Source: an uncultured bacterium
Lineage (GTDB): Bacteria > Patescibacteriota > Minisyncoccia > Phycocordibacterales > PALSA-1337
Reading direction: 5' to 3'
Length of the DNA: 48,160 bases
NCBI GenBank assembly: GCA_903876465.1
Contig: CAIRAF010000065.1
Coordinates: 1 to 48,160 of the forward strand
Made by a program: the position numbers and the translations under genes. The notes beneath the pieces are model-generated. The model worked only from the letters and a program-made list of their open reading frames with translations. It ran no database searches and had not been told where the DNA came from. Positions 17,818 through 35,877 of this stretch are shown here, in pieces; within the stretch, counting starts at the first letter, position 1, and every line of letters starts with the position of its first letter.

Positions 17818-18660
17818 ATGCAAAAGGACCAAATCATTATCAACGGAAAAGTCTTTCTCTCCACCCGCCGAGGTGCCGAGATAGCCGGATATTCTGCGGA
17901 TTATGTGGGACAACTTTGCAGGTCTGGAAAAATTGAATGTCGTAGAATTCGACGAGTTTGGTTCATCGAAAAGGATTCAATTTTGAGACACTCTGCCACC
18001 TATGCAAACGTAGCTACTAGAGCTAACGTAACTTCATTCAAACCTGAGGATTTTAAGCACTCAAGATCAAGCCTTATTTCGTCAGCATTTCCATTGCTAC
18101 TGACATCTCCACAAGGAGGCTCTGTTTCAAGTATGTCTGCTGGCATTTCTTATAACCAGCGTTCATATCAAAAAAGTACAAATTCATTCAGCACCGCAGT
18201 ATTTGCAGTGTTGTTGTTTATTGTTCTAGGTTTTTCTGTTGCCACACTATTCATGGGTCCTTTTGGACACACAAACTCTGGCACATCATCAAATCTCGTT
18301 GCTTCAGTGTCTGGCGCAGTAAATTCACTTGTTAACGATATCTTCGGTTTATTTAATCGTTCAAATACAAATTTAATTACAGATTTGAGTGTATCAGCAA
18401 ATAATTCTGATTCAGGAGCACCAACACAGGCTGGAATGGTAGTCGTGCCTTCACAAGGATCAACATCAAATAATACAAGACTTGCAAATGATATTACGAG
18501 CTCATTTTCAGATCCTGTCTCATTGAAGCAGTCTGTAGATGCAAATTCAGGAGTTATTACTCCAGTCTTCCGAACAGTGAAAGGAAAAGATTTCATGTAT
18601 GTGTTGGTACCGGTCAAAGCAGCGACTTCATCAGTAGCCACTTCTTCTCAAAATATATGA
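17818..18660 (+). CDS. Membrane-tethered helix-turn-helix protein (N-terminal HTH, one TM, S/T-rich extracytoplasmic C-terminus)
   Basis: 280-aa ORF. HTH-like FLSTRRGAEIAGYSADYVGQLCRSGKIECRRIRRVWFIEKDSI. TM segment FSTAVFAVLLFIVLGFSVATLFMG. Its stop overlaps the next start (ATGA at 18657-18660), consistent with translational coupling. Confidence 0.7.
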   Translation: MQKDQIIINGKVFLSTRRGAEIAGYSADYVGQLCRSGKIECRRIRRVWFIEKDSILRHSATYANVATRANVTSFKPEDFKHSRSSLISSAFPLLLTSPQGGSVSSMSAGISYNQRSYQKSTNSFSTAVFAVLLFIVLGFSVATLFMGPFGHTNSGTSSNLVASVSGAVNSLVNDIFGLFNRSNTNLITDLSVSANNSDSGAPTQAGMVVVPSQGSTSNNTRLANDITSSFSDPVSLKQSVDANSGVITPVFRTVKGKDFMYVLVPVKAATSSVATSSQNI

Positions 18661-19463
18661 AAATCTTGAAATCAAAAATGCAGGAATATTCAATCAGTGC
18701 GCTAGTTTTATCTTTTGTATTTGTGATTGTATTTGTATTTTGCACTTCATATCTCGTACCTTTTGCTTTGGCTCAGGTCATGTCGAGCAGTAATTTCAAA
18801 GTTCTAGATCAGAGTGTTAACTTTGCAGGAAATAATTCAAGTTCAACAAATTATCAGATGCAGGATACTGTTGGTGAAATTGCTACAGGTTTCTCATCAA
18901 GTACAAATTATTCGATTAGTGCTGGATATCAGCAGATGAATATCGTCGCAATTTCAGTTGTGCCTCCTACAAACGTCACCATGACTCCAAACTTGGGCGG
19001 TGTGACTGGCGGTACGTCCAATGGATCAACAACGTTTATCGTCACTACAGACGATACTGCTGGATATACTTCAACCATTCAAGCATCTACTTCACCTGCA
19101 CTTGTTAATACTTCATCAACAACAAATTCATTTGCTGATTATGTACCAGCTGGTTCAAATCCAGATTTTACTTTCGCATATGCAGCCACATCATCAGTCT
19201 TTGCTTGGTCAGTCCAAGGCACTGATGCTGATCAGAGATTCTTGAATAACGGTTCTGTTTGCAACAGTGGATCAACTAGTTCTATCACAACATGTTGGGA
19301 TGGACTTTCAACTGGTACAAAGACTGTTGCAGACAGAACTTCAAACAATCAACCATCTGGAACGCAATCAGTTTTGTATTTCCGTGCAGGTATCGGATCA
19401 TTACGTGTTCAACCAAATGGCTTGTATGTAGCTACGACCACTCTAACCGTCATTCCTCTCTAA
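18657..19463 (+). CDS. Secreted beta-rich protein, family member 1 (distant paralogue of 34371 and 35182)
   Basis: 268-aa ORF. N-terminal hydrophobic signal/anchor ending ..FALAQV. It shares with the two downstream paralogues the blocks V(T/V)M(T/S)PxLGG(V/I)TGGTxNG, GY(T/N)xTIQAS, a Cys pair (VCNSG...TCWDG) and LYF(R/Q)xGI...Y(V/I)(A/S)T(T/S)TLT at the C-terminus. Confidence 0.7.
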   Translation: MKILKSKMQEYSISALVLSFVFVIVFVFCTSYLVPFALAQVMSSSNFKVLDQSVNFAGNNSSSTNYQMQDTVGEIATGFSSSTNYSISAGYQQMNIVAISVVPPTNVTMTPNLGGVTGGTSNGSTTFIVTTDDTAGYTSTIQASTSPALVNTSSTTNSFADYVPAGSNPDFTFAYAATSSVFAWSVQGTDADQRFLNNGSVCNSGSTSSITTCWDGLSTGTKTVADRTSNNQPSGTQSVLYFRAGIGSLRVQPNGLYVATTTLTVIPL

Positions 19464-19470
19464 ATTATTT

Positions 19471-22400
19471 ATGAAGCATTTTATTTACATAACATTCATC
19501 CTCACAATCCTTACTGGAGGTGTTATGTACGTACATGCAGCCAGTACTTCTTTCACAACATCTCTCACAACTTACGCTTTTGATAATATTCCTCCAACAG
19601 TTCCAACAGGACTTACAGCCACTCCAATTTCTCAATCCCAAATTGATTTGAGTTGGTTACCTTCAACAGATAATAATCTTGTCGGAGGATATGTTGTTTA
19701 TCGTGACGATGGAGCAATTGCCACAACTTCAGGAACAACCTTTAGTGATACTTTGCTCTCAGCAAGTACAACTTACACATATTCAGTTCAAGCATTTGAT
19801 GGTTCATCAAATTATTCAGCAACTTCAACTTCAGTATCAACAACAACATTACCTGTACCAGTTGTAATCATTTCAACATCAACTCCACCAGTTTCGGGAG
19901 GTTCAACAAGTTCAGGTGGTTCAGCTTTTATCACTGATCTAACTGTTACTCCACACACAGTAGATAGTGTAATAAATTTCAATACTGCATCACCAGCACG
20001 CTCGACAGTATCTTGGGGATTAACTCCAGATCTCGAAGCAGGTTCTATAACAAGTATTTTCTATGACACTACACACGAGATCACGATCACCGGACTCACA
20101 GCAGACACACATTACTATGTTCGAATAAGTGTTGTTGGTGCACAAGGTGTTCAATCATCAGTCGATAGTCAATTCAACACTATCTCACTCAATCCAATAT
20201 CAATTTTGAACCCATCGAACTTTACAGCAACTCCAAAAGGTCTTGGTCAAAACGGTATCAATCTTTCATGGACAAATCCAATAGATCCACGTTTTGGGTC
20301 TGTACGTGTCGTTCGATCAACCACATTCTTCCCAAGAGACCAATATGACGGTGTGCCGGTGTATCAAGGCGCAGGACAAAATTTCTTTGATGCTTCAACT
20401 GTTCCAGGTACACGATATTATTATTCAATCTTTGCAGAAGCGACTGATGGATCTTTCTCTTCAGGAGTACTCGCACAGGCACGCATCGGTATTGTTGGAG
20501 AAATAATTCCAGCCAATAACAATCCATTTACACAAGCTCCACCAGCAAGTAACGTCAATCCTCTTATTGCAAACCTTACAATTTCAGATTTTGAATTTAT
20601 TCAGAATGGAAAATTCCTAACTCCTAATACAAACAATGTTATCTCAATTGATGGCACGAAGAATCTCACAATCAGACTTGCATATAACAAGGTTCCAGAA
20701 ATCTTAAAGACAATTGCTGTATCACTAACTGATCCAAAGGATTCTTCAAAGGCTTTCATCTTCTTGCTCCGTGCAAATGCAAACAAGTCATACTATGAAG
20801 CCAATGTCGGTTCACTCGGCGTGTCTGGAGATTTTCCACTTGCTATCAGTATTCTTGATTATCAGAATCAAAGTTTGAAACAAATTGCTGGAAGTCTTGT
20901 AGCAGCTGTAGGTGATATTGCGATTTCGAGTGATCAATTTGGTCAGCTTTCATTCTGGCTCATAATTATCTTACTCATCGTTCTGCTCGTTATCGTAGTT
21001 CGAATTCTTGCTAAGAAAAATAAAAAAGATAACTCAAAGGGAAGTGACAATGTCACCGTGGTAACTTCAGCAGTAATTGCGCTTGTTATTTTGAGTGGTG
21101 CGATGTTCTTTGGAATTCATCAAGCTTACGCTTTCAATCAACAGATTAACTATCAAGGAAAATTGGCTAATGCTTCAAATATTTCTGTTGCTAACGGCCA
21201 GTATCCTATTGTCTTTAAGTTGTATACAACATCAAGCACGACTACTCCTATTTGGACTGAAACTGATTTTGGCGCAAATCAACCAACAGTTTCTGGTGGA
21301 CTCTTTAGTATCATGCTCGGATCGACAACTCCATTTACTGGTGTTGATTTCAATCAGACTTTGTATCTCGGTGTAACTGTTGCAAGTGATACAGAAATGA
21401 CACCACGTAAAGTTATTGGCGCTGTGCCAGCTGCATTCCTTGCTGGAACCTCAACTATTGCACTTTCCGCAAATACTTTGCAGGGAATTACACCAGGGCA
21501 GTTCTTCCGTAATGATCAACAGAATGCTACTTCATCCGCTGCAACTTTCTTGTCTATTCTCCAAACAGGTGCTGGTAAAGTTGCTGAATTCTTTGCAAGT
21601 GCAGGACAGAGTGCTCTCGCTATTCTCTCAAATGGAAATGTCGGTGTAGGTTCATCAACACCAGTTGCCACACTTTCAGTTACAGGTACAAGTACTGCAG
21701 GAGTAAATCCTTTCATTGTTGCTTCTTCATCTGGAGCAACATTGCTCACTGTTCTTCAGAATGGAAATGTGGGAGTTGGTACTGCTAATCCAAAATTTCA
21801 ATTACATGTTCTTGAATCTGGCCAACCAAGTACTAACAATCCGATCGATGTAATGGCAGTGGAAGTTGGTTCGCCAAGTTCGGGTACAGCTACGGGATAT
21901 GGACCAGCGATTCTTTTTAAAGATATTGGTACAAATGTTACTAATATGGCTAGGATAGGAGCGGTATATGAACCGAATGGAACTAATAATCTCGGTGGTT
22001 TGATTTTTTCTACAAACAGCGATACTAATAACTCCCTTACTCTTCCTTCAGAGAAAATGCGTATAACCGCATTTGGCAACGTTGGAATCGGCACATCATC
22101 ACCTATAGCTTCACTAACTGTTGTTAGTTCGACTACCGCACAGATATCTTTCGTCGTCGCTTCTTCATCTGGTACTCAATTATTAACACTCTTCGGAAAT
22201 GGTAATTTTGGTCTCGGATCAACATCACTTTCAAACCTCTTTACAGTAGCCGGTAACGGATTCTTCAATGGAAATGTAACTGCAACAAATATTATTGCCA
22301 CCGGCACATTGAATGTTAGTGGTCAAACAACACTTGGTAACGCCACAATCACCAATGCATCAACAACCAACCTCGCTGTCACTGGTCTTGCAAACACAGT

Positions 22401-25400
22401 TTTGTCAGTTAATGCTCTTGGTCAAGTAGTTGCAACATCAACTGCTGGATTTGGAACAAACTACTTTAGTAATTCTGGAGCAACTACAACTAACAACTTT
22501 GCAAACCTTGCTTCAACTCTTGGTGTATTTGGAACAATTCAGGCTACAAGTACAACTGGTACAAGTACTTTTGCTGGTGCATCGATATTTACCGGTAACG
22601 TCGGTATCGGAACAACATCTCCAATGGGAGGGTTTGCTTTCCAAGGTTTCAACGCATCGACAAGTGCAACAACAAACTTTGCAGTATATGCAGGAAATGG
22701 ATACTCAAATGCTGGAACCAATGGTCCTGGAAGTAGTATCGCGTTTGTTACTGGAAGTGCAGGTAGTGGTTCAGTAGGATATGCCGGCGGAGATTTTAAT
22801 GTTACGACCGGTAGTGGTGTCTCAAGTAATGCTCCAGGACGTGGCGGTAACATTGCATTTAGTTTAGGAGCTGGTGGAATTGCCGGCCCGGCTGGTGGAG
22901 TCGGAGGAACGTTTGCAGTTGTTTCTGGTAATGGAGGTGCTTCATCTGCAACTCAACCAACTGGTGTTGGAGGAGCAGTTACTCTTACGGCAGGAAATGG
23001 TGGTGCACAAACTGGTTCAGGTTCTAGTGCTGCTGGCGGCGCATTAACGCTTACCGCAGGCAATGGTGGTAATACTACTCTTAATGGATCTCCATCAGGT
23101 ACAGGTGGAACAATTACTTTTACTGCTGGTAATGCAGGTACAGTTTCTTCATCCACATTAGCCGGTGGTAATGGCGGTAACATCATTTTAATTCCTGGTA
23201 CCGCTACTGCCACTGGCACACCTGGTTATGTCGGTATCGGTACAACATCACCATCTAATTTACTTACTGTTGCAGGTAACGGTTTCTTCAACGGCAATAT
23301 TACTGCTACAAACATTACTGCAACTGGAACTCTATCGGTTACTGGTCAGACAACACTTTCTGGTCAGACATTCCTTGTTAACGCTTCAACAACAAACTTT
23401 TCAGCTTCTGGTTTTGCTAACGTTACTGGAACAACCACAACAGGTGGTTTGAGTGTTGCTTCATTAAACGGAGTCCTCTTTGGTACAAACGGAGCAATTA
23501 CAGCTATTGCAACTTCATCACTCGGTATTCCTAACTTCTGGACTCTATCTGGCGCTACGACAACAAACACAGTAGCTAACGTCGCTTCAACTCTTGGTGT
23601 CTTCGGTTCAGTACAAGCAACTAGTACAACTGGAATTAATACATTTGCAGGAACAGTTGGCATCGGCACATCCTCACCTAGTTATCCATTTACTGTTGCA
23701 AGTCAGACAGTAACAACTGTTGTCACTGGCGGAACGAGCAATTTAAATATAGGATCTGATATTGAAGGAATAACACAAAGACAAATTTCAAGTAGTGCAA
23801 CCCAAAATTATATTACATTAAATCTTCTTGCTAGTTCACAAAATACTGTAGCTGGTGGACCAACTAATCAAACAACTTATGGTCTTTATAGTAAGGCCTT
23901 CAGTTCTAATCAGGCTTCGATAAGTAACAATACATATTATGGTGCTTATCTCGAAGCATCAGGAGCTAATGCTGGTGCAACAACTGTAACTGATTATGGT
24001 CTCTATGCAAATGCTATCAGTACTTCGACAAATGCTACGAACTACGCCGTCTATGCAAACGCTGCCAACGGAAGTCAAAACTACGGTATCTATTCTGCAG
24101 CAGGCACGAACTATTTTAATGGTAATGTCGGCATCGGTACAACATCCCCAAGTAATTTACTCACTGTCGCTGGCAACGGTTTCTTCAGCGGCAACATTAC
24201 AGCTACAAATATTACTGCAACTGGAACTCTATCGGTAACAGGTCAGACGACATTGGGAAATGCTTCGACAACCAATATCACAGTTTCAAATAATTTAAAT
24301 GTTACTTCTACCACTACAACAACAGGATTGAAGATAGCGTCACTCTCTGGAGTACTCTTCGGTACAAACGGAGTAATAACAGCAATAGCGACATCATCAC
24401 TCGGTATTCCTAACTACTGGACTCAGTCTGGTGCAACGACAACAAACACAGTGGCTAATGTCGCTTCAACTCTTGGTGTGTTTGGAACAATACAGGCGAC
24501 ATCAACTACAGGAACAAGTACTTTTGCAAGTTCCGCAATATTTAATGGAAGAGTTGGAATCGGAACAACAACACCAGCAGAAAGTTTGACTATATACAAA
24601 GGTACAACTAATGTCAGTACTTTGATTTCAGATAATGGAGTTTTATTTACAAGATCTTACGATGGATTAGCTTCAGCAGGAGTATATTATACTGGAAATA
24701 CGTTCATGACTTCAGACGGAGAAGTTATTCTATATCCAGGTAATCGTACAGCCGTGGATACTATAAATGATTCATCTGTTGGTAAGGCTGCAATCAGCGG
24801 AGCTGTAACTCTTGGTGGCGCGAATCTTCAGGTGATCGGTTCACTTGCAGTTGGCGGAACTTATGCTTCATTATTAACAACACCAGCAAATGGTGCAATC
24901 TTCCAGGGTACTGTCGGCGTTGGCACGTCATCACCATCTACCTCAAACGCTCTTGAGGTTGGCGGTAACGGATATTTTGCAGGGAATATCACTGGTGCAA
25001 ATTTGATTGCAACAAGTACTCTCACAGTCTCTGGTCAAACCACTCTCGCTAATGCTTCAACAACAAACTTGTCAGCTTCTGGTTTCCTCAAGGTCACCGG
25101 TCAAACCACTCTAGGCAATGCAACAATCACTAACGCTTCTACAACCAACCTCGCTATCACTGGTCTCAACAGTGCCATCTTGTCAGTAAATGCACTTGGT
25201 CAAGTTGTTGCAACAACTTCTGGATCTGGAACAAACTACTTCTCTAACTCTGGAGCAACGACAACACTTACTACTGGAACTAACCTTGTTGCCGCACTCT
25301 TCGCTGCTCCTTATTTCTTAGCAACTTCCACAACAGCGACTTCTAGTATTGCAGGAAACTTTAGTGTCACTGGTCCATCAATATTTGGTGGTCAGTTAAC

Positions 25401-28400
25401 AATAGGTAACGGTAATGTGAACACAGATTATGGCGTATCTATAACTAACCTAAATGCAGGATCAAGTGCTGCTGCTGATATTTCTTTTGTAAATAATTCT
25501 GGTGGGAATGCTTATGTTGGAGTTGGTTCAAGTGGAACAGCTGCGGCATATGCTTCACGTGCTTTCTTTGATACTTTCACAGGTTCAGGTACATCTATCC
25601 TATCTTCTGCATCTGGAGGAGATGTACGTTTCTATACAGCTGGTGCAGCTGCTGGAAATGAAAGAATGCGTATCGGTAATACAGGTAATGTTGGTATTGG
25701 TACGACGACAGCATCAAATTTACTTGAAGTCGCAGGTAACGGATATTTTGCTGGTAACCTCACTGCAGCAAATATCACAGCAACTGGAACACTTAATGTT
25801 ACAGGTAAAACAACTCTTGCCGCTGCTTCTACTACCGCATTGACTGTCGCCAATAATCTATTTGTAAATGGAAAAATAGGAATAAATGATCCAAACCCAG
25901 CACCATTTATTGACATAAATCAGAACGGTTCAAATCCAGGTCTAGTTATGCAGAGTACAGCACCATGTGGTACTTATGGCTCATACAACACTGGTAATGC
26001 ACGTTTTGAAGGCGGTACTGATAATGGAGGAAATATCCAATTTGAATCACAAAGAGGTACTGCTGGTTGTGCTCAAGCGGGAGCCATGTATTGGGATTGG
26101 GGTTGGGATAATGGAGGTGACTTTAATTTGAGACTTGCTATGTTTGATGATCATACTTTCCAGGTTTATGATAATGGAAGTGGTACAACGACAGTTTGGT
26201 CATTCCAGCAAAGAGGTGGAACAGTCTTCAATTATGCAACATCAACTATCTTTACTGGTGGTGGTAACGTTGGTATCGGTACGACGACACCTACAGCAAG
26301 TAACATTTTGACTGTCGCTGGTAACGAGTTTGTTAATGGAAACATTACAGCTACAAATATTACTGCAACCGGCACTCTTAATGTCACAGGTCAGACGACA
26401 CTTGGTAATGCAACAATCACTAACGCTTCTACAACCAACCTAGCTATCACTGGTCTCAACAGTACCATCTTGTCAGTAAATGCTCTTGGTCAAGTTGTAG
26501 CAACCACAACATCCGCTGGAACAAACTTCTTCAGTAACTCTGGAGCAACAACGACACTTTCTACCGGATCAAATCTTGTAGCCGCACTCTTTGCAGCACC
26601 ATACTTTATGGCGACATCGACTACAGCAACTTCAACATTTGCTGGAGCATTCGGAATTGGTTCATCAACACCTTCAGCAGCAAATATTCTTACTGTTGCT
26701 GGTAATGGATTCTTTACAGGTAACATTACAGGCGCAAACTTGATTGCAACAGGAAATCTCACCGTTTCTGGTAATTCAACACTTGCTACAACCTCTGCTA
26801 CAAGTCTTTCATCAACCGGTTCATTGACAGTTGGTCCTACAAATCTTACTGCAACAAATAATAGTTTTGCATTCGGTTATGCTCCTGGAACATCAGCTAT
26901 TACAGCAACTGGAACAGGTTCTTTAGCTTTTGGTCAAGCCGTATTTGCTGGGTCTAAAGCTTCAATAATAGCAAATAATACTGGTTCATTCGCAGGAGGT
27001 TTTGCTCTTGGTAATGGAGGTTCTCCAACAATATTATCTTCTGGAGCAGGCTCACTCGCATTTGGTAATACCGGATCAACAAGAAATATTACTTCAAGTG
27101 GAAGTGGCTCTATAGCTATGGGATTGACAACTTCAGGGAATCTTACGGCTACTGGTAATGCCTCAGTTGCTATTGGTCAAGATGTTAACGCTACTGCGAA
27201 CAATGCTTTTGCTCTAGGATCAAGCTTTACAAATGCTACTGCTTCAACTTTCCAAGTTGGTTTCTCAGCTACACCAATTCTTACAGTTACAAATACAAGT
27301 ATTGGTATTGGAACGACTTCACCATCAAATGCTTTGGAAGTCGCTGGTAACGGATATTTTACTGGTAATTTGACTGGTACAAATATTACTGCAACAGGTA
27401 CTCTTGCTGTTTTGGGTCAAACAACACTAGTAAACGCTTCAACTACAAACATTTCTGCAAGTGGTTTTGCGAATGTAACAGGAACTACAACAACCGGTGG
27501 TTTGAGTGTCGGTTCATTGAATGGATTACTTTTTGGAACTAGTGGGGCAGTCACCGCTACAACATCTATTAGTAATTCATATCTCGCCAATTCAACTATT
27601 TCTGGTATATCTCTTGGTCAAAACCTAGCTAATCTCACTGCTACAAACAGTACTCTCACATTCTCAGGTAGTTACAATGGTGGAACCGCTCAAACAGTTG
27701 GACTCAATCTTTCCAATACAAATACATGGAGTGCACTACAGACATTTAGTAATGGCATCATGTCTACAGCAAGTTCAACATTCACAAATATTACGATTGG
27801 ACAATCAACCACAACAAACGCTACTACAACTAGCCTCGCTATCACAGGTCTTTCAAATACAGTCCTCTCAGTAAATGCTCTTGGTCAAGTTGTAGCAACC
27901 ACAACATCCGCTGGAACAAACTTCTTCAGTAACTCTGGTGCAACAACAACACTTTCAACTGGATCAAATCTTGTTGCAGCTCTCTTTGCTGCTCCTTATT
28001 TTTTGGCAACTTCCACAACAGCGACTTCTAGCATTGCAGGAAACCTCACGGTTGATGGTGGTACATTTACTATTAACTCGATTGCCAATTTGGTGGGCAT
28101 TGGTACTGCCAATCCAACTGCAGCCTTTTCTGTTCAAGCAGGAACTAACACAATGCCATTCTTTGTTGCTTCTTCATCAGGCGCACAACTTCTCACTCTT
28201 CTTCAAAATGGAAACTTTGGTATTGGTACTTCAACACCAATAGCTTCATTTAGTTTCCAGGGAGTTGGACAATCAACTACGACATCTGCGAATTCATACT
28301 CGTTCGTTGTTAATGGTGGTAATGGTGTGAACGTTGCTGGTGCTGGAGGCAATGGAGGCGGCGTTCTCTTTAATACAGGTAACGGATTGACTGCTGGTAC

Positions 28401-31400
28401 TTCTGGAACTGGAGGTGACTTCGCGGTAAATACTGGTAACGGAGGCGGTGTTAACCGTGGTGGAAATATGACATTTACTCTCGGCAATGGTGGTGGTACT
28501 TCTAGTAATGGCGGAGCATTCTCTCTAACTGCAGGTAATGGTGGTGGAGCAGCAGGACCACCATCCGGTCCAGGTGGAGCAGTTACTATCACAGCTGGTA
28601 ATGGTGGTGCTCAAGGTGGAGGTAGTTCTGGTGCTCTAGCCGGAGTCCTCACTCTCAACGGTGGTAATGCCGGCAGTGTCACAAGTGGTGGAGTGAATGG
28701 TGGAAATATTATCCTTATGCCTGGTCTTGGTTCTGGAACAGGTCTTCGTGGCCTTGTCGGTATCGGTTCATCAACACCATCCGCCATGCTTTCTGTTCTT
28801 GCAGCCACCAACACCATTCCTTTTGTTGTTGCTTCTTCATCTGGCGCACAACTCCTCACTCTTCTTCAAAATGGAAACTTTGGTATTGGCACATCTTCAC
28901 CTTCAAATATGCTTGAAGTTGCAGGTAATGGATATTTTGCAGGAAATATCACAGCTACAAATATCACCGCAACCGGCACTCTTAATGTCACAGGTCAGAC
29001 GACACTTGGTAATGCAAATATCACAAACTCAACAACAACGAACGCTACAACAACCAACCTAGCTATCACTGGTCTTAACAGTGTAATCTTGTCAGTCAAT
29101 GCATTAGGTCAGGTTGTTGCAACAACTTCTGGATCAGGAACAAACTACTTCAGTAACTCTGGTGCCACAACGACACTTTCAACAGGATCAAATCTTGTAG
29201 CCGCACTCTTCGCTGCTCCTTATTTCTTGGCAACATCTTCTACGGCGACGAGTAATTTTGGAGGTAATGCCACTGTAGGTACAACAAGTTTAGTGTCTGC
29301 ATCAAATAATAGTTTTGCTTTGGGTGATATTTATTCAGCAAATGCTGGAAGTACATACTCTGTTGTTTCATCAGGAGGAGGTTCGTTTGCTGGTGGAGCA
29401 GTGCAGACACCAGCTGGAACTGCTACGTCAACTATACTTTCGTCTGGTCCCGGATCTTTTGCATTCGGTATTTCTGTTGGTGTTTCTGGTGGAACGAGCA
29501 AGATTACTTCTTCGGGGGCTGGTTCTGTAGCTTTAGGGTATTCAAGTGGCACTACTGCTGGAACCGGTTTGATTTCAGCATCTGGAAACGGATCATTTGC
29601 TGGTGGATATATGTCTAACACTGGTAGCGGAACCGCATCGACAACAGCATCTGGTATTGGTGCATTTGCGTGGGGAACTGGTGTCGGTGCATATCAGACG
29701 CTATCGACTGCCTTTGGTAGCGGTTATGTAAACAACACCGCAAATTCATTTATGGTTGGTTATTCAGCAATACCAACTCTTACAGTCAATAGTACATCAG
29801 TTGGTATCGGCACAACTTCACCTTCAAATACACTTTCAGTTGCTGGTAACAGTTTCATCAATGGAAATGAGACAGCAACAAATATCACCGCAACCGGCAC
29901 TCTCACTGTCTCTGGTCTAACAACGCTTGGTAACGCTTCAACCACATCATTTACTTCAACAGGTCCAACATTCTTGGCGACCGGTGGAGGAAATGTTGGA
30001 ATTGGAACAGCTGCTCCAGCTTATCCATTTTCAGTGCAAGGAAGTATTGTTGATGATTTGTCTTTTATGCAAAATACGAATGTTTCCGGATGGAGTACAA
30101 TGGTTTTGGCAAATAGTAATGCAACAATTAAGACGAGTTTTGGTATAGGTAATGCTTCTGCATCAACCTTTGCTAATACAGCTTTCTTTGATGTCTTTGC
30201 AGGTGGAGCTCCGTTTGTTCTCGCAACAAATGATACAGAACGTATGAGAATTGAAAATGGTGGCAATATAGATATAGGTACAACTTCATCATCAAACCTA
30301 CTCTCTGTTGGTGGTAATGGATTCTTTACCGGTAACCTTACAGCAGCGAACATGATTGCAACAGGAACTCTAATTGTTTCTGGCCAGACAACTCTTGGTA
30401 AAACAATAATGTCTAATTCAACTACAACTAATGCAACCACAACTAACCTCGCTATCACTGGTCTAAACAGTGTAATCTTGTCAGTTAATGCATTGGGTCA
30501 AGTAGTTGCAACGACTTCTGGATCCGGTACTAACTACTTCAGTAACTCTGGTGCCACAACAACACTTTCAACAGGATCAAATCTTGTAGCAGCTCTCTTC
30601 GCCGCTCCATATTTCACAGCAACATCAACTACTGCAACAAGTACTTTTGCTGGAAATGTTTTCGTAGGTCCTACAAACCCTAATTTCTATCCCGCTTCTC
30701 CTTTAGTAGTTACTACCAATACAAATAATTATGGTCAATTTGTTGTTCAAAATTTGAATAGTGGAAATAATGCCAGTGGAGACTTAATTGTTGGTGGAGA
30801 TAAAATGACTGACACTTCATATTACGGAGATCTTGGATGTAATAGTTCAACGTTCAATCAAGTAGGACAAACAATTTTGCCAGCATTTGATTGTTATCTT
30901 TATTCTTCAGATTCAAATCTTGATATTGGTACCGCTTCAACAACTGGTCCTTCAAACATCAATTTCTTTACAGGAGGAACGCTTGCAGCAAACAATCGTA
31001 TGACTATTTTGACCAACGGTAATGTTGGCATCGGTACAACTTCACCATCATCACTCAACCTTCTTACTGTCGCTGGAAACGGATTCTTCAATGGAAGTTT
31101 GACTGCTGGTACACTCAACGCAGCATCTACAACTGGTACAAGTACAATTGCCGGAAACTTGGTTGTTGGCCCATCATCTGGAACTACAGGCTTCATGATG
31201 GATGCAAATGGCAACGTCGGTATTGGTACATCTACACTTTCAAATATTCTCGAAGTCGCTGGTAATGGATATTTTGCCGGTAACCTCACTGGTGCAAATA
31301 TTACTGCAACTGGAACTTTGGCCGCAATTTCAAATATTGCTCTTGGTACTTCTACTTATAGTTTTGTTGATGGAATTGCAATGGACTATATACAAGCAGC

Positions 31401-34191
31401 AAGTGGTAATGGTCGTATCAGTGTGGGTCCTTCAGATAGCTTGAGTTTCTACAATGGAGGTCTTGGTAATACACGTCTAGGTTATTTCGATCCAAACGGA
31501 AACTTCTATTCAAATACAATCAATGCGACATCGACAACAGGTACAAGTACATTTGCAGGGAATTTGACTGTCGATGGCGGTACGCTTACTGTCAATTCAA
31601 TCAATAACACAGTTGGTATTAACACAACAAATTCAAATGCAACTCTTGGAATTAAGGGTTCATCTGGTACAAATCCATTTGTCATTGCTTCATCATCTGC
31701 AACAGTTGCATTCAATATGCTCACCCTCAACCAGGCTGGCGACTTTGGTATAGGTTCATCGTCACCAAGTGCAAACCTTTCAATCCAAGACAACTCTGGT
31801 CTCGCTGGAACAAATCCACTATTCATTATCGCATCTTCAACTTTGACTGGAACAGCTACAACAACACTTCTTTCACTCTTCGGTAACGGTAACTTCGCCC
31901 TTGGAACGACTTCACCATCAAACATCTTTACAGCAGTTGGTAACGGTTATTTCTCCGGTAACCTCACAGCAGCAAACATGATTGCAACGGGAACTATCAC
32001 GCAACTAGGTACAGGCACATCTACATTTGCAGGAGGTCTTAATGTCGATAGTGGAACATTTATTGTAAATCCAACAACAAATACTGTCGGTATAAATACA
32101 ACTAATTCTAACGTAACTCTCAATGTTAAAGGAACTGCCGGATTTAACCCATTTGTTATTGCTACTTCGTCAGCAACCGTAGCATTCAACATGCTTACAC
32201 TTAACCAAGCAGGAAGTTTTGGTATCGGCACATCAACACCTGCAGCTAAACTTTCAATTCAAGATAACTCAGGTTTAGCAGCAACAAATCCACTATTCGT
32301 TATCGCATCTTCAACTTTGACTGGAACAGCTACAACAACACTTCTCACACTCCTTGGTAACGGTAACTTCGCCCTTGGTTCAACCACTCCTTCAGGTATC
32401 TTTACGGCAGTCGGTAACGGATATTTCTCAGGTAGTTTGACTGCTGGTGCAATCACAGCTACAAGTACATTGACTGTTGTTGGTAATACCTCACTTCAAA
32501 ATGCTTCAACAACGAACCTTTCAGTTTCTGGATTCTTTAGACAAACCGGTACTTCTGGTACAAACCCATTTGTTATCGCTTCTTCATCAGCTACACAATT
32601 CAGCATGCTCGCTCTTCTTCAGAACGGATTCCTCGGTATAGGTTCATCAACTCCAGGTTCAAAGCTTTCTATCCAAGATAACTCTGGTGCTGCGACATCG
32701 ACTGGACTATTTACAATCGCATCATCAACTTCTGCGGGAGCTGCAACAACAACACTCTTCACAGTTACTGGTGGTGGTTATGTCGGAATTGGTACAACGA
32801 CACTCGTCTCAACATTCACAGTTGCTGGTTCAGCCTGTTTCGCTTCAACGACACAGGCCGGTGCAAAGACTGTTTGTGGTACAAGAACTGGTAACATTTA
32901 TTACGATACGGCAAACCCTGGTAACTACGACGTCGCCGAAAACTATCAGACATCTGATCCATCTATAAGTGCCGGTGACATCGTTTCTGCTGATCCATCA
33001 CGACCAAAGAATATTTTGCGAGCTACAACAGGTAGTCGTGTTCTCGGTGTTATTTCTACTCAACCTGGTGAACTTCTTGGTGGATCAAGTCCAGATATTC
33101 TCACAGCAACCATGAGACCAGTTGCTCTATCAGGACGTATTCCAGCAAAGGTTAGTACTGAAAATGGACCAATCGCTATTGGAGATTCAATTGCTTTGTC
33201 GAGTGTAGCAGGTATTGGTATGAAGGCTTCAGGTTCAGGTGAAAGAGTTGGTATCGCTCTTGAGTCATATTCAGGAAATGGTGTTGGTGTTATCGACATC
33301 TTTGCTAATCTCGGTCAGAATGTTGACCTCAATCAGTTCGCACTCGCAAGTTCAACAAATGCTTCAACAACAGTCATCGCTGATGAATTAACAGTAGCGC
33401 TTGCATCAATACAGTCATTGCAAGGTCAAACAAATAATTTGAATAATCAATTCACAGCATTCTCTTCATCTACTTCAAACTTTATTTCTTCAGTTTCCTC
33501 AACAACAGCGGCGGCTCTAGCTTCATCAACATCATTTGTTCAGACTATCGCTGATGCAGTTGTCAGTATCCTCAATGCAAGTGGTCAAGTTATAAATTCT
33601 GCAGGGAAGTGGACGGTTGGAGAAATTACAGCTCTCACTGGAACCTTCAATAAAGTTATAGCCGGTCGCGTCGAAACTCAGACCGCCGCAGTTTCGAATG
33701 GTATAGAAATGTCATCACCAAATGGACAACTCTGGTGTGTACGTATAGATAACACTGGTAACTTTGTTCGAACAACGGGATCATGTGATACATCTGCATC
33801 GACGACACCTGTAACTAATACACCTATAACTACAGGTCAAAGTAACACGGCTCCAGTAGTTACAAATAATCAGCCAACCTCAACAACCACTGTAACTTCA
33901 GCACCAGTCAATTCAACATCAACTGATAATACAAGTTCAAACACAACTAATCCAACAACCTCATCTTCGACATCTTCTACACCAGTAGTGACTTCAACTC
34001 CTGCTCCAGCACCAACAACCACAACGGCTCCAGATACTACAGTAACTCCAGCCTCAACAAGTCCAACTCCTACGACTTCAACGACACCAGCGCCAGTAGT
34101 TACTCCAGCTCCTGCTCCAACAGTAACGACAGCAGTAGCTCCAGATCCCACAACTTCAACCTCTGCAACGCCTCCAACAACATCACCGTGA
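19471..34191 (+). CDS. Giant (4,906 aa) mosaic cell-surface fibre/adhesin
   Basis: Uninterrupted 14.7-kb ORF ending TGA TGA.
- Signal peptide MKHFIYITFILTILTGGVMYVHA.
- Three FN3-like domains (e.g. PTGLTATPISQSQIDLSWLPS...YTYSVQAFD).
- Two-TM hairpin at about aa 490-554.
- About 15 copies of NVGIGT(T/S)SPxxLLxVAGNG(F/Y)FxGN(I/L)TAxNIxATGTL modules, of the kind seen in phage-tail-fibre-like proteins.
- Two Gly-rich LTAGNGG tracts.
- Two SxAxG YadA-head-like tracts.
- C-terminal globular module and an S/T/P tail. Confidence 0.9.
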   Translation: MKHFIYITFILTILTGGVMYVHAASTSFTTSLTTYAFDNIPPTVPTGLTATPISQSQIDLSWLPSTDNNLVGGYVVYRDDGAIATTSGTTFSDTLLSASTTYTYSVQAFDGSSNYSATSTSVSTTTLPVPVVIISTSTPPVSGGSTSSGGSAFITDLTVTPHTVDSVINFNTASPARSTVSWGLTPDLEAGSITSIFYDTTHEITITGLTADTHYYVRISVVGAQGVQSSVDSQFNTISLNPISILNPSNFTATPKGLGQNGINLSWTNPIDPRFGSVRVVRSTTFFPRDQYDGVPVYQGAGQNFFDASTVPGTRYYYSIFAEATDGSFSSGVLAQARIGIVGEIIPANNNPFTQAPPASNVNPLIANLTISDFEFIQNGKFLTPNTNNVISIDGTKNLTIRLAYNKVPEILKTIAVSLTDPKDSSKAFIFLLRANANKSYYEANVGSLGVSGDFPLAISILDYQNQSLKQIAGSLVAAVGDIAISSDQFGQLSFWLIIILLIVLLVIVVRILAKKNKKDNSKGSDNVTVVTSAVIALVILSGAMFFGIHQAYAFNQQINYQGKLANASNISVANGQYPIVFKLYTTSSTTTPIWTETDFGANQPTVSGGLFSIMLGSTTPFTGVDFNQTLYLGVTVASDTEMTPRKVIGAVPAAFLAGTSTIALSANTLQGITPGQFFRNDQQNATSSAATFLSILQTGAGKVAEFFASAGQSALAILSNGNVGVGSSTPVATLSVTGTSTAGVNPFIVASSSGATLLTVLQNGNVGVGTANPKFQLHVLESGQPSTNNPIDVMAVEVGSPSSGTATGYGPAILFKDIGTNVTNMARIGAVYEPNGTNNLGGLIFSTNSDTNNSLTLPSEKMRITAFGNVGIGTSSPIASLTVVSSTTAQISFVVASSSGTQLLTLFGNGNFGLGSTSLSNLFTVAGNGFFNGNVTATNIIATGTLNVSGQTTLGNATITNASTTNLAVTGLANTVLSVNALGQVVATSTAGFGTNYFSNSGATTTNNFANLASTLGVFGTIQATSTTGTSTFAGASIFTGNVGIGTTSPMGGFAFQGFNASTSATTNFAVYAGNGYSNAGTNGPGSSIAFVTGSAGSGSVGYAGGDFNVTTGSGVSSNAPGRGGNIAFSLGAGGIAGPAGGVGGTFAVVSGNGGASSATQPTGVGGAVTLTAGNGGAQTGSGSSAAGGALTLTAGNGGNTTLNGSPSGTGGTITFTAGNAGTVSSSTLAGGNGGNIILIPGTATATGTPGYVGIGTTSPSNLLTVAGNGFFNGNITATNITATGTLSVTGQTTLSGQTFLVNASTTNFSASGFANVTGTTTTGGLSVASLNGVLFGTNGAITAIATSSLGIPNFWTLSGATTTNTVANVASTLGVFGSVQATSTTGINTFAGTVGIGTSSPSYPFTVASQTVTTVVTGGTSNLNIGSDIEGITQRQISSSATQNYITLNLLASSQNTVAGGPTNQTTYGLYSKAFSSNQASISNNTYYGAYLEASGANAGATTVTDYGLYANAISTSTNATNYAVYANAANGSQNYGIYSAAGTNYFNGNVGIGTTSPSNLLTVAGNGFFSGNITATNITATGTLSVTGQTTLGNASTTNITVSNNLNVTSTTTTTGLKIASLSGVLFGTNGVITAIATSSLGIPNYWTQSGATTTNTVANVASTLGVFGTIQATSTTGTSTFASSAIFNGRVGIGTTTPAESLTIYKGTTNVSTLISDNGVLFTRSYDGLASAGVYYTGNTFMTSDGEVILYPGNRTAVDTINDSSVGKAAISGAVTLGGANLQVIGSLAVGGTYASLLTTPANGAIFQGTVGVGTSSPSTSNALEVGGNGYFAGNITGANLIATSTLTVSGQTTLANASTTNLSASGFLKVTGQTTLGNATITNASTTNLAITGLNSAILSVNALGQVVATTSGSGTNYFSNSGATTTLTTGTNLVAALFAAPYFLATSTTATSSIAGNFSVTGPSIFGGQLTIGNGNVNTDYGVSITNLNAGSSAAADISFVNNSGGNAYVGVGSSGTAAAYASRAFFDTFTGSGTSILSSASGGDVRFYTAGAAAGNERMRIGNTGNVGIGTTTASNLLEVAGNGYFAGNLTAANITATGTLNVTGKTTLAAASTTALTVANNLFVNGKIGINDPNPAPFIDINQNGSNPGLVMQSTAPCGTYGSYNTGNARFEGGTDNGGNIQFESQRGTAGCAQAGAMYWDWGWDNGGDFNLRLAMFDDHTFQVYDNGSGTTTVWSFQQRGGTVFNYATSTIFTGGGNVGIGTTTPTASNILTVAGNEFVNGNITATNITATGTLNVTGQTTLGNATITNASTTNLAITGLNSTILSVNALGQVVATTTSAGTNFFSNSGATTTLSTGSNLVAALFAAPYFMATSTTATSTFAGAFGIGSSTPSAANILTVAGNGFFTGNITGANLIATGNLTVSGNSTLATTSATSLSSTGSLTVGPTNLTATNNSFAFGYAPGTSAITATGTGSLAFGQAVFAGSKASIIANNTGSFAGGFALGNGGSPTILSSGAGSLAFGNTGSTRNITSSGSGSIAMGLTTSGNLTATGNASVAIGQDVNATANNAFALGSSFTNATASTFQVGFSATPILTVTNTSIGIGTTSPSNALEVAGNGYFTGNLTGTNITATGTLAVLGQTTLVNASTTNISASGFANVTGTTTTGGLSVGSLNGLLFGTSGAVTATTSISNSYLANSTISGISLGQNLANLTATNSTLTFSGSYNGGTAQTVGLNLSNTNTWSALQTFSNGIMSTASSTFTNITIGQSTTTNATTTSLAITGLSNTVLSVNALGQVVATTTSAGTNFFSNSGATTTLSTGSNLVAALFAAPYFLATSTTATSSIAGNLTVDGGTFTINSIANLVGIGTANPTAAFSVQAGTNTMPFFVASSSGAQLLTLLQNGNFGIGTSTPIASFSFQGVGQSTTTSANSYSFVVNGGNGVNVAGAGGNGGGVLFNTGNGLTAGTSGTGGDFAVNTGNGGGVNRGGNMTFTLGNGGGTSSNGGAFSLTAGNGGGAAGPPSGPGGAVTITAGNGGAQGGGSSGALAGVLTLNGGNAGSVTSGGVNGGNIILMPGLGSGTGLRGLVGIGSSTPSAMLSVLAATNTIPFVVASSSGAQLLTLLQNGNFGIGTSSPSNMLEVAGNGYFAGNITATNITATGTLNVTGQTTLGNANITNSTTTNATTTNLAITGLNSVILSVNALGQVVATTSGSGTNYFSNSGATTTLSTGSNLVAALFAAPYFLATSSTATSNFGGNATVGTTSLVSASNNSFALGDIYSANAGSTYSVVSSGGGSFAGGAVQTPAGTATSTILSSGPGSFAFGISVGVSGGTSKITSSGAGSVALGYSSGTTAGTGLISASGNGSFAGGYMSNTGSGTASTTASGIGAFAWGTGVGAYQTLSTAFGSGYVNNTANSFMVGYSAIPTLTVNSTSVGIGTTSPSNTLSVAGNSFINGNETATNITATGTLTVSGLTTLGNASTTSFTSTGPTFLATGGGNVGIGTAAPAYPFSVQGSIVDDLSFMQNTNVSGWSTMVLANSNATIKTSFGIGNASASTFANTAFFDVFAGGAPFVLATNDTERMRIENGGNIDIGTTSSSNLLSVGGNGFFTGNLTAANMIATGTLIVSGQTTLGKTIMSNSTTTNATTTNLAITGLNSVILSVNALGQVVATTSGSGTNYFSNSGATTTLSTGSNLVAALFAAPYFTATSTTATSTFAGNVFVGPTNPNFYPASPLVVTTNTNNYGQFVVQNLNSGNNASGDLIVGGDKMTDTSYYGDLGCNSSTFNQVGQTILPAFDCYLYSSDSNLDIGTASTTGPSNINFFTGGTLAANNRMTILTNGNVGIGTTSPSSLNLLTVAGNGFFNGSLTAGTLNAASTTGTSTIAGNLVVGPSSGTTGFMMDANGNVGIGTSTLSNILEVAGNGYFAGNLTGANITATGTLAAISNIALGTSTYSFVDGIAMDYIQAASGNGRISVGPSDSLSFYNGGLGNTRLGYFDPNGNFYSNTINATSTTGTSTFAGNLTVDGGTLTVNSINNTVGINTTNSNATLGIKGSSGTNPFVIASSSATVAFNMLTLNQAGDFGIGSSSPSANLSIQDNSGLAGTNPLFIIASSTLTGTATTTLLSLFGNGNFALGTTSPSNIFTAVGNGYFSGNLTAANMIATGTITQLGTGTSTFAGGLNVDSGTFIVNPTTNTVGINTTNSNVTLNVKGTAGFNPFVIATSSATVAFNMLTLNQAGSFGIGTSTPAAKLSIQDNSGLAATNPLFVIASSTLTGTATTTLLTLLGNGNFALGSTTPSGIFTAVGNGYFSGSLTAGAITATSTLTVVGNTSLQNASTTNLSVSGFFRQTGTSGTNPFVIASSSATQFSMLALLQNGFLGIGSSTPGSKLSIQDNSGAATSTGLFTIASSTSAGAATTTLFTVTGGGYVGIGTTTLVSTFTVAGSACFASTTQAGAKTVCGTRTGNIYYDTANPGNYDVAENYQTSDPSISAGDIVSADPSRPKNILRATTGSRVLGVISTQPGELLGGSSPDILTATMRPVALSGRIPAKVSTENGPIAIGDSIALSSVAGIGMKASGSGERVGIALESYSGNGVGVIDIFANLGQNVDLNQFALASSTNASTTVIADELTVALASIQSLQGQTNNLNNQFTAFSSSTSNFISSVSSTTAAALASSTSFVQTIADAVVSILNASGQVINSAGKWTVGEITALTGTFNKVIAGRVETQTAAVSNGIEMSSPNGQLWCVRIDNTGNFVRTTGSCDTSASTTPVTNTPITTGQSNTAPVVTNNQPTSTTTVTSAPVNSTSTDNTSSNTTNPTTSSSTSSTPVVTSTPAPAPTTTTAPDTTVTPASTSPTPTTSTTPAPVVTPAPAPTVTTAVAPDPTTSTSATPPTTSP
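22270..30660 (+). repeat. Dispersed intragenic repeat family (six copies of the ...ILSVNALGQVVAT...SNSGATTT... module plus flanking VAGNGFF modules)
   Basis: Core copies start near 22402, 25180, 26470, 27866, 29090 and 30478. Copies 3 and 4 share a 71-nt identical run (tcagtaaatgctcttggtcaagttgtagcaaccacaacatccgctggaacaaacttcttcagtaactctgg). Confidence 0.85.
23230..24560 (+). repeat. Direct duplication with ~897-nt period inside the giant gene
   Basis: 23230-23354 versus 24127-24251 are about 89% identical at DNA level by eye, including the identical run attactgcaactggaactctatcggt. The following GVLFGTNG..ITAIATSSLGIPN(F/Y)W.. blocks are also duplicated. Confidence 0.8.
31551..32810 (+). repeat. 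Tandem ~471-nt (157-aa) coding repeat, about 2.7 copies
   Basis: Units begin near 31551, 32022 and about 32490. Protein-level repeat: TFAG.L.VD.GT..VN...NTVGINTTNSN.TL..KG..G.NPFVIA.SSATVAFNMLTLNQAG.FGIG.S.P.A.LSIQDNSGLA.TNPLF.IASSTLTGTATTTLL.L.GNGNFALG.T.PS.IFTAVGNGYFSG.LTA. Confidence 0.8.
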
Positions 34192-34370: not shown

Positions 34371-35054
34371 ATGATTAAAAATATAACAAAAATAATCAGT
34401 AATGCAGGGCTAACAATGCTCGTTCTGGCCTTTGCATTTACTACGGTCGAACCAGCAGTTAGTTTTGGGGCACCAGTACAGAGTCAGTTCACTATCTCTC
34501 AAACAACAAATTCTGAAGTCTCATTTGTAACTTTAGCTTCTAATGTTGTGATGTCACCAACTCTTGGAGGTATCACTGGTGGTACAGCAAATGGTTTGAC
34601 ACAAGTTGCAGTTTTGTCCAACAATTCCACTGGTTACAACATGACCATCCAAGCAAGTTCGACAGGTGCTATGCAAGGTACAGCAAGTTCAACTAACTTT
34701 ATTCCAGTTTATTCGACTACTACTCCAGACTATAACTTCGTTACCCCGGCCAACAGTGCACGTTTCGGTTATACAGTGAATGCGAGTACGACGAGTGATG
34801 TAACAGCACTTTTCAAGTCCAATGGTTCGAATCTTTGTGGTGTGGGTGGTTCAACATCTGGTGGAGGTATACATTGTTGGATCGGTGCAACTTCAACAGC
34901 TGTACAAATCATAAATCGCGGGACTGCAACAGCGGGTACCGGTGCCACAACTACCTTGTATTTCCAAGTTGGTATAGCAGCTAACCCTCTCCCAGCAATA
35001 CCAAATGATACTTATGTTTCCACTTCAACATTGACAGCTACTGCCAATCCATAA
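34371..35054 (+). CDS. Secreted beta-rich protein, family member 2
   Basis: 227-aa ORF. Signal-like N-terminus ...LVLAFAFTTVEPAVSFGA. Close paralogue of 35182-35877 and distant paralogue of 18657-19463. Conserved Cys pair (LCGVGG...HCWIG). C-terminus YVSTSTLTATANP. Confidence 0.75.
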   Translation: MIKNITKIISNAGLTMLVLAFAFTTVEPAVSFGAPVQSQFTISQTTNSEVSFVTLASNVVMSPTLGGITGGTANGLTQVAVLSNNSTGYNMTIQASSTGAMQGTASSTNFIPVYSTTTPDYNFVTPANSARFGYTVNASTTSDVTALFKSNGSNLCGVGGSTSGGGIHCWIGATSTAVQIINRGTATAGTGATTTLYFQVGIAANPLPAIPNDTYVSTSTLTATANP

Positions 35055-35181: not shown

Positions 35182-35877
35182 ATGTCAAAATTATTTATCA
35201 ACATAATCAGTCGTGCCAGTCTCAGTTTCCTTGTTCTTACGCTTGCATTTACTGCAGTAGAACCAGCAGTAAGTTTCGGGGCATCAGTACAGAGTCAGTT
35301 TACTATTTCTCAACAAGTTAGTGCCGAAGTTGCCTTTGCAACACTTGCATCTAACGTCAGTATGTCACCAACTCTTGGAGGTATCACTGGTGGTACAGCC
35401 AATGGACAGACCCAAGTAGTTGTTACTACCAACGATCTTCTTGGTTACAACATGACCATCCAAGCAAGTTCGACAGGTGCTATGCAAGGTACAGCAAGTA
35501 CAACTAACTTTATTCCAGTTTATTCAACTACTACTCCGGACTTTACCTTCGTTACACCAGCAAATACTGCTCGTTTTGGTTATACGGTCGGCGCAAGTAG
35601 TACAAGTGATGTAACACCACTTTTCAAGTCCAATGGCTCTAGTCTTTGTGGTGTAGGTGGTACTACAGCAAATAATACCAATACATATTCAGCTCTTAGA
35701 TGTTGGATCGGTGCAACTTCAACTGCAGTAACTATCATAAATCGTAACTTGCCAACACAAGCTCCTGGTGCTACAACTACATTGTATTTCCAAGTAGGTA
35801 TAGCGGCTAACCCTGTTCCAGCTATTCCAAACGATACATATATTGCAACTTCAACACTAACAGCTACAGCAAATTAA
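35182..35877 (+). CDS. Secreted beta-rich protein, family member 3 (tandem paralogue)
   Basis: 231-aa ORF, collinear with 34371-35054. Shares a 58-nt identical DNA run (tggttacaacatgaccatccaagcaagttcgacaggtgctatgcaaggtacagcaagt) and the same signal-like region ...LAFTAVEPAVSFGA. Confidence 0.75.
   Translation: MSKLFINIISRASLSFLVLTLAFTAVEPAVSFGASVQSQFTISQQVSAEVAFATLASNVSMSPTLGGITGGTANGQTQVVVTTNDLLGYNMTIQASSTGAMQGTASTTNFIPVYSTTTPDFTFVTPANTARFGYTVGASSTSDVTPLFKSNGSSLCGVGGTTANNTNTYSALRCWIGATSTAVTIINRNLPTQAPGATTTLYFQVGIAANPVPAIPNDTYIATSTLTATAN

Follow-up and report, generated by a model that had tools for sequence, protein, structure and literature searches.

A stalk protein and a giant fibre fused in frame through a predicted internal signal peptide in an uncultured bacterium of the Patescibacteriota

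The stretch of DNA analysed here (the window, 48,160 nucleotides) is one whole contig (C65; CAIRAF010000065.1) of the 827-kb genome of an uncultured, ultrasmall bacterium of the Patescibacteriota, which is assembled in 111 contigs and has 5% contamination. It carries an open reading frame (ORF) for a protein of 4,906 amino acids (aa), and its sequence indicates that two genes, adjacent and translationally coupled, have naturally become fused in frame to form this ORF. One of them would encode a signal-peptide-bearing stalk of FN3/Ig-like domains with one C-terminal transmembrane (TM) helix and a short basic tail. The second would encode a giant secreted fibre, in which a conserved Ig-like head lies right behind a Sec-type signal peptide. 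The second hydrophobic segment at the junction of the two is the former signal peptide of the fibre, with the signal-peptidase motif kept. Cleavage after A554 into an anchor and a free fibre is the best-supported interpretation, and we consider it probable.

A Kyte-Doolittle (KD) scan of the translated protein revealed just three strong hydrophobic segments, which are the N-terminal signal peptide (MKHFIYITFILTILTGGVMYVHA|AS), a TM helix (TM1) and the second segment of the junction (TM2). The hairpin region that the last two form extends from Q492 (20944) to the codon of F555 (21133-21135). TM1 has a 19-residue KD mean of 3.37, and the second segment (aa 528-549) has a KD of 2.33. The loop between them, AKKNKKDNSKGSDN, carries a net charge of +3 (+4 across the 12 residues ending at K523) and obeys the positive-inside rule; it corresponds to the basic tail of the anchor plus the n-region of the fibre signal peptide. 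An earlier reading of the letters without database searches (the sequence-only reading) had described TM1, the basic loop, a second hydrophobic stretch and an AYA|F site continuing as NQQINYQGKL, and all of its coordinates and strings were borne out by the translation and the KD scan. The fibre part, which it had put at about 4,350 aa, counts 4,352 aa from F555 on.

The Pfam fn3 domain (PF00041) was found at aa 45-120 with 33.4 bits, compared with a cut-off of 25, and a sequence search with the whole protein matched FN3 domains from the PDB to aa 38-127 (E 1.8e-10). An AlphaFold2 model of aa 24-554, with a mean predicted local distance difference test (pLDDT) score of 83, consists of four beta-sandwich domains followed by a two-helix hairpin, the helices of which span aa 487-520 and 527-553. 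A stop-transfer TM helix, a cytoplasmic loop and an internal signal in this order would place both large domains outside.

The 116-aa head was used as a query against 101 genomes of the same family. The head was found in 53 of these, nearly always as a single copy, and 50 loci were fetched and the reading frame upstream of the head examined. Stalk, TM1, basic loop, hydrophobic segment, AxA and head are fused in frame in 26 of the 50 loci. The remaining 24 are split: a stop is located 33-63 codons upstream and is followed by an ordinary signal peptide of the type M-basic-hydrophobic-AxA. The sequence-only reading had proposed that two genes, an FN3 anchor and a fibre, were fused, and these two-gene versions in relatives support the proposal. 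Where it had looked to orthologous loci for separate halves, 18 of the 24 split loci have an anchor homologue directly upstream, overlapping or abutting the fibre gene and, except in locus L012, in another frame. The upstream gene in these 18 loci ends with TM1, a variable basic tail of 8-20 residues and a stop. In most of these loci the fibre ATG overlaps the anchor stop by 1-14 nucleotides (nt), or comes 0-4 nt after it, which is a hallmark of translational coupling and implies that a one-base change yields a fusion. In L012 (the same as L054) anchor and fibre share a frame and are separated, around 1390-1400, by a single stop followed by ATG (..NESIN*MKYYSSNKK..), and this split locus is one mutation away from the fused state.

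The junction, TM-loop-hydrophobic-AxA-INYQGKL, is kept in 25 further genomes of the family. Furthermore, in a search of 1.84 billion protein representatives, 16 of the best 150 have the motif 150-600 residues into the chain, and in each of the 16 a TM-loop-hydrophobic-AxA junction precedes it. This conservation, in the family and among the representatives, shows that the junction is not a product of chance. The closest representative with an internal motif, P0002, is 84% identical and has the same junction, ending AHA|FNQQINYQGKL. In 131 of the 150 the motif is found within the first 80 residues, so that the sequence after the site is normally a mature N-terminus, as the sequence-only reading had suggested. 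Its comparison of loop and TM2 to a signal peptide also holds, in that the segment is orthologous to the true N-terminal signal peptides of the split loci and has retained their features.

The stalk of the fused locus L019 (G024:C5, 8-1257) matches in two frames, +1 for query aa 65-353 and 0 for aa 360-480, which suggests a frameshift or sequencing error inside that stalk. In the fused loci L002, L024, L034 and L040 the cytoplasmic loop is enlarged to 33-77 low-complexity or charged residues.

The sequence features of the internal segment are largely those of a cleavable signal. Among the fused copies, position -1 is Ala in 26 of 26 and position -3 is A, T or V in 26 of 26, whereas position -2 is small in only two and otherwise bulky or charged. 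The same pattern is found when all 50 loci are taken together (Ala at -1 in 50, a small residue at -3 in 49 and at -2 in three), and the window has AYA|F. Pairwise identity between fused copies is 1.00 at -1, 0.55 at -3, 0.17 at -2 and 0.15 in the h-region, and the profile of the split loci is the same. Fused and split loci agree in the length of the h- and c-regions, which, measured between the site and the last basic residue before it, is 23 and 25 at the median (p=0.08), and the median net charge before the h-region is +4 and +3, respectively. TM2 differs from TM1 in the 26 fused loci, with a median length of 17 vs 20.5 residues and a mean KD of 2.3 vs 3.1 (Wilcoxon p=6e-5), and several of the fused cores are, at 10-15 residues, rather short to cross the membrane permanently. 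In the window itself the h-region (22 aa, KD 2.33) is less hydrophobic than TM1 (22 aa, KD 3.13), but not shorter.

The internal segment starts at about residue 514 of 4,906 and is thus not N-terminal, whereas the orthologous segment is N-terminal in the 24 split loci. An in-frame start giving a separate fibre with a basic n-region is missing from 22 of the 26 fused loops, including that of the window, and some of the loops are just four residues long (KKKK, RKKR). Where such a start is missing, the fibre must be exported by the internal segment. The genome encodes two signal peptidases of the Peptidase_S26 family, scoring 148 and 113 bits against a Pfam cut-off of 22.9, on contigs C98 and C88.

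The history of the locus was followed on a maximum-likelihood tree of 44 concatenated stalk and head sequences. Six changes between the fused and split states are needed on this tree, at least two of which are forced by well-supported branches. The fused state therefore arose or was reverted two or more times, with six such events on the best tree. Because the outlying genera on the tree are split, the split state is probably ancestral, and fusion derived and recurrent. Such repeated interconversion is easiest to understand if the two states are functionally equivalent and give the same mature products.

Of the 101 genomes, 47 have the last domain of the stalk and 53 have the head. Both are found, in single copy, in 46 genomes, and one genome has the stalk only and seven the head only; these co-occurrences are given as counts and not as a statistical test, kin being non-independent. 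Anchor and head are adjacent or fused in 44 of the 50 loci. That 46 genomes carry both suggests that stalk and head are a stable partnership, encoded together or apart.

In locus L030 (G072:C15:16951-20232), from the same genus, the anchor domain is upstream of the head at a distance of about 2.5 kb, and the interval contains an open frame that ends in ..IDEVRIYNRALSAAEVKALYQYGQSTVKH and a stop. The adjacency of anchor and head is thus not absolute. The ending of the intervening frame resembles a LamG/concanavalin-like domain.

The following route to the surface can be proposed. The N-terminal signal peptide would begin the export of the stalk, TM1 would halt the transfer, and the basic loop would remain cytoplasmic in line with the positive-inside rule. 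The former signal peptide (TM2) would then restart translocation, now of the 4,352-aa fibre, and type I signal peptidase would most likely cut after AYA(554). This would give, in a fixed 1:1 ratio, a stalk anchored by the hairpin (aa 24-554) and a free fibre starting with FNQQINYQGK, the same products as those expected of the split relatives. The fibre would presumably be held on the cell by docking of its conserved head on the stalk, with the variable, repeat-rich distal part projecting outward as an adhesin. Such docking is probable in view of the synteny, the co-occurrence and the pattern of conservation.

Several points weigh against cleavage followed by docking. The rule by which sites were located demands small residues at -1 and -3 in a 9-residue span, which inflates the conservation at these positions somewhat, although most of the sites have the same offset from INYQGK; the conservation of Ala at -1 could also stem in part from the adjoining conserved head. 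The site in the window is shifted by one residue compared with most relatives (AYA|F, not AxA|A(I/F)N), and its h-region, with 22 residues, is among the longest to be expected of a cleavable signal. Docking is proposed from synteny and co-occurrence, and the seven genomes with a head only carry no anchor of this type.

The length of the h-region in the window would also fit a real fusion in which TM2 is not cut, so that a permanent hairpin tethers the fibre covalently to stalk and membrane and the AxA is a leftover or masked. In accordance with this, AlphaFold2 models a single continuous helix to residue 553, and a covalent tether would explain how the fibre is retained, with no other anchor, on a cell lacking an outer membrane. 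Furthermore, an AxA behind a TM helix can stay uncut until a conformational change, as in RsiV (PMC5014341). We nevertheless regard an uncut hairpin as rather unlikely, since the -1/-3 pattern is perfect in 26 fused copies whose h-regions have drifted to 15% identity, many of the fused h-regions (10-17 residues) are short for a stable span, and repeated change between fused and split genes is easiest when both yield the same mature products.

Internal translation initiation, either in the loop or at GTG 21058, could in principle make a separate fibre and render the fusion merely apparent in the protein. This GTG (V530) is in frame and has a purine-rich GGAAG 14 nt upstream, and in four of the 26 fused relatives the loop has retained an ATG in frame. 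The loop of the window, however, contains no ATG, GTG or TTG, and a start at V530 would lose the entire basic n-region; the absence of an in-frame ATG at the junction and the consequence of using the GTG had both been pointed out in the sequence-only reading, correctly. A suitably placed start is absent from 22 of the 26 fused loci, and a ribosome engaged on the anchor would continue into the fibre anyway. Internal initiation is thus very improbable for the window, and as a general mechanism it was rejected because start codons are missing in most fused loci. That there are truly two genes, joined into a single frame by an error of assembly or sequencing through which a base or a stop was lost, is scarcely credible and was rejected on comparative grounds: the difference between split and fused relatives can be as small as one stop codon or one base of frame and the metagenome-assembled genome is a 111-contig bin with 5% contamination, but 25 other independently assembled genomes are fused, including the closest relatives L004, L007 and L008 (59% identity over the anchor part), the 84%-identical P0002 has the same junction, and the loop of the window shows the evolution of a loop and no trace of a former start codon.

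The fibre that would be released by cleavage after A554 begins with the conserved head, the first approximately 98 residues of which model as a beta-sandwich with a pLDDT of 85-93. Over the head, identity in the 29 best related loci amounts to 55-73%, and the head family comprises 16,388 representatives at E<=1e-3 among the 1.84 billion searched. A sequence search of the head against the PDB gave no match, and the same search with the whole protein matched FN3 domains only. Neither NCBIfam nor PHROG matched any part of the whole protein, and Pfam matched fn3 alone. A Foldseek search of the head model against the PDB returned generic Ig/FN3-like sandwiches alone (best E 2.3e-3), so that no specific family was assigned to the head. 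The C-terminal globular region of the fibre (32608-33570) gives a weak hint of Peptidase_G2 (IMC autoproteolytic domain; E=0.077, 12.8 bits vs a cut-off of 25). Many relatives carry Peptidase_S74 (PF13884), for which Pfam gave no match in the window protein. Fibre lengths vary widely among the relatives, whose public names are "hypothetical protein", and the fibre is a member of a large unannotated class of tail-fibre-like surface proteins. A sortase- or exosortase-type sorting signal was considered for TM1 and its basic tail and rejected, because no LPXTG-, PEP- or PGF-like motif is conserved before TM1 in the 50 loci.

Polyproteins cut by signal peptidase at internal signals are well known from the glycoprotein precursors of enveloped viruses (flavivirus prM-E, alphaviruses, bunyavirus Gn-Gc), and the cytochrome b/c1 precursor FbcH of Bradyrhizobium is a bacterial polyprotein processed at an internal signal. 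To our knowledge, only a handful of natural bacterial cases exist. The window protein resembles these polyproteins in having a stop-transfer TM segment, a short cytoplasmic loop and an internal AxA-type signal, and in that two membrane or exported products with a fixed stoichiometry are expected from one chain. It differs in that its cleavage is a predicted one and its products would be a cell-surface stalk and a giant fibre, and in that roughly half of the relatives have the pair as two separate genes, which makes the polyprotein state evolutionarily labile. The segment likewise has the layout of Sec-type (type I) signal peptides of Gram-positive-like bacteria, with a basic n-region, an h-region of about 17-22 residues, a helix-breaking S or P at -5, small residues at -3 and -1 and a bulky one at -2. 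Unlike ordinary Sec-type signal peptides, it lies 527 residues into the chain and behind another TM helix.

Cleavage by type I signal peptidase after a TM segment that is not N-terminal has been described for site-1 of RsiV in Bacillus subtilis (PMC5014341). Here too an AxA-type site is found just outside a TM segment away from the N-terminus of the chain. RsiV, however, has a single N-in TM helix, a lysozyme-gated cleavage and a role in signalling (PMC5014341), whereas the segment in the window is the second arm of a hairpin and derives from a genuine signal peptide. A comparison can also be made with the mosaic adhesive trimer (MAT) fibres of Bdellovibrio bacteriovorus, all 21 of which have a beta-rich domain, conserved and about 130 aa long, directly after the signal peptide (Caulton et al. 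2024, PMC10769870). This N-terminal domain presumably binds a cell-surface element that is as yet unidentified (PMC10769870). In architecture, which alone was compared, the window fibre is similar: it is a long surface fibre with a beta-rich domain (the sandwich of about 98 aa) right after the signal and with variable distal parts, and many of its relatives end in Peptidase_S74. In contrast to the MAT fibres, the window protein is without S74, its host is a monoderm-like bacterium of the Candidate Phyla Radiation, and a dedicated FN3 anchor adjoins the fibre or is fused to it. As the likeness is architectural only and the S74 domain is lacking, we do not file the fibre as a member of the MAT group.

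The window case would represent a form of a known mechanism, the polyprotein cut by signal peptidase, in an uncharacterised surface module. A wider proposal, which we put forward tentatively, is that Paceibacterota have repeatedly made a two-gene surface module into a polyprotein that is split by the general signal peptidase during export, the FN3/Ig stalk then being the docking partner of the widespread 'INYQGKL' head. If this is true, the stalk would be the type of partner that has yet to be identified for the equivalent domain at the N-terminus of the Bdellovibrio MATs. Tied as it is to a head family of more than 16,000 representative clusters, the conserved FN3 stalk is a concrete candidate for what holds such fibres on the cell. 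The occurrence of the same locus in split and fused form in sister species amounts to a natural experiment: both forms should give the same products, and the fused form therefore predicts cleavage at A554|F555.

There are also consequences for annotation. Giant ORFs of this kind should be read as anchor plus fibre, and the fused frame should not be taken for a frameshift and "corrected". In the public gene call (P0152), the ORF has 4,888 aa and starts at M19 (nt 19525), by which the signal peptide is lost. ATG 19471 sits 8 nt past the preceding stop, and since the MK-hydrophobic-AxA N-terminus is conserved in relatives it is the better start; the public start codon thus probably strips the protein of its signal peptide. 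The features of the locus are collected in Table 1.

Table 1. Features of the anchor-fibre ORF and its conserved upstream neighbour, in window coordinates
Feature	Position (nt)	Strand	Description and basis
Fused anchor::fibre ORF	19471..34191	+	4,906 aa; translation
Anchor-part signal peptide, aa 1-23, VHA|A	19471..19539	+	KD peak; counterparts in relatives
Extracellular stalk, 4 FN3/Ig-like beta-sandwich domains	19540..20946	+	aa 46-125, 154-236, 249-338, 374-479
TM1, predicted stop-transfer anchor, aa 493-513, LSFWLIIILLIVLLVIVVRIL	20947..21009	+	KD scan; C-terminal anchor of the upstream gene in split relatives
Basic, predicted cytoplasmic loop AKKNKKDNSKGSDN, aa 514-527	21010..21051	+	No in-frame start codon
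Internal signal-peptide-like segment	21052..21132	+	h-region aa 528-549 VTVVTSAVIALVILSGAMFFGI; c-region HQAYA aa 550-554
Predicted signal peptidase I site	After A554, between nt 21132 and 21133	+	AYA|F; -1/-3 conserved
Sequence across the predicted cut A554|F555	...MFFGIHQAYAFNQQINYQGK	+	Junction-spanning peptide
Conserved fibre head, Ig-like beta-sandwich, FNQQINYQGKL ... RKVIGAVPAA	21133..21450	+	Homology, model
Fibre shaft (variable, repetitive), C-terminal globular region, S/T/P-rich tail	21451..34191	+	No further TM segment
Conserved upstream partner gene, 268-aa secreted protein	18657..19463	+	tblastn; paralogous to 34371-35054 and 35182-35877

The anchor/fibre pair is situated within a conserved cluster, with the gene at 18657-19463 upstream and two tandem paralogues, at 34371-35054 and 35182-35877, after the fibre. 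In 21 of the named loci L053-L088, tblastn places a full-length homologue of the 268-aa upstream protein (about 215-268 aa aligned) directly upstream of the anchor, and others give shorter matches. The cluster layout recalls the Csc/WxL surface clusters of Firmicutes. A WxL/Csc-type identity of the small secreted neighbours was, however, unsupported by Pfam and was rejected, the sole hint being a sub-threshold match to WxLIP_PGBD (22.6 vs 27.3 bits) in a 355-aa protein encoded at 35888-36955. This protein has a signal peptide and a C-terminal TM helix, and its gene is downstream of the fibre in the window and upstream of the 268-aa-type gene in relatives. Upstream of the cluster, 17818-18660 encodes a protein of 280 aa, the N-terminus of which is weakly HTH_17-like and which has a single TM helix and an external part rich in S and T. 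Homologues of this protein were found by tblastn at full length in L053 and as partial matches, mostly to the C-terminal 60 or so residues, in about 35 more loci.

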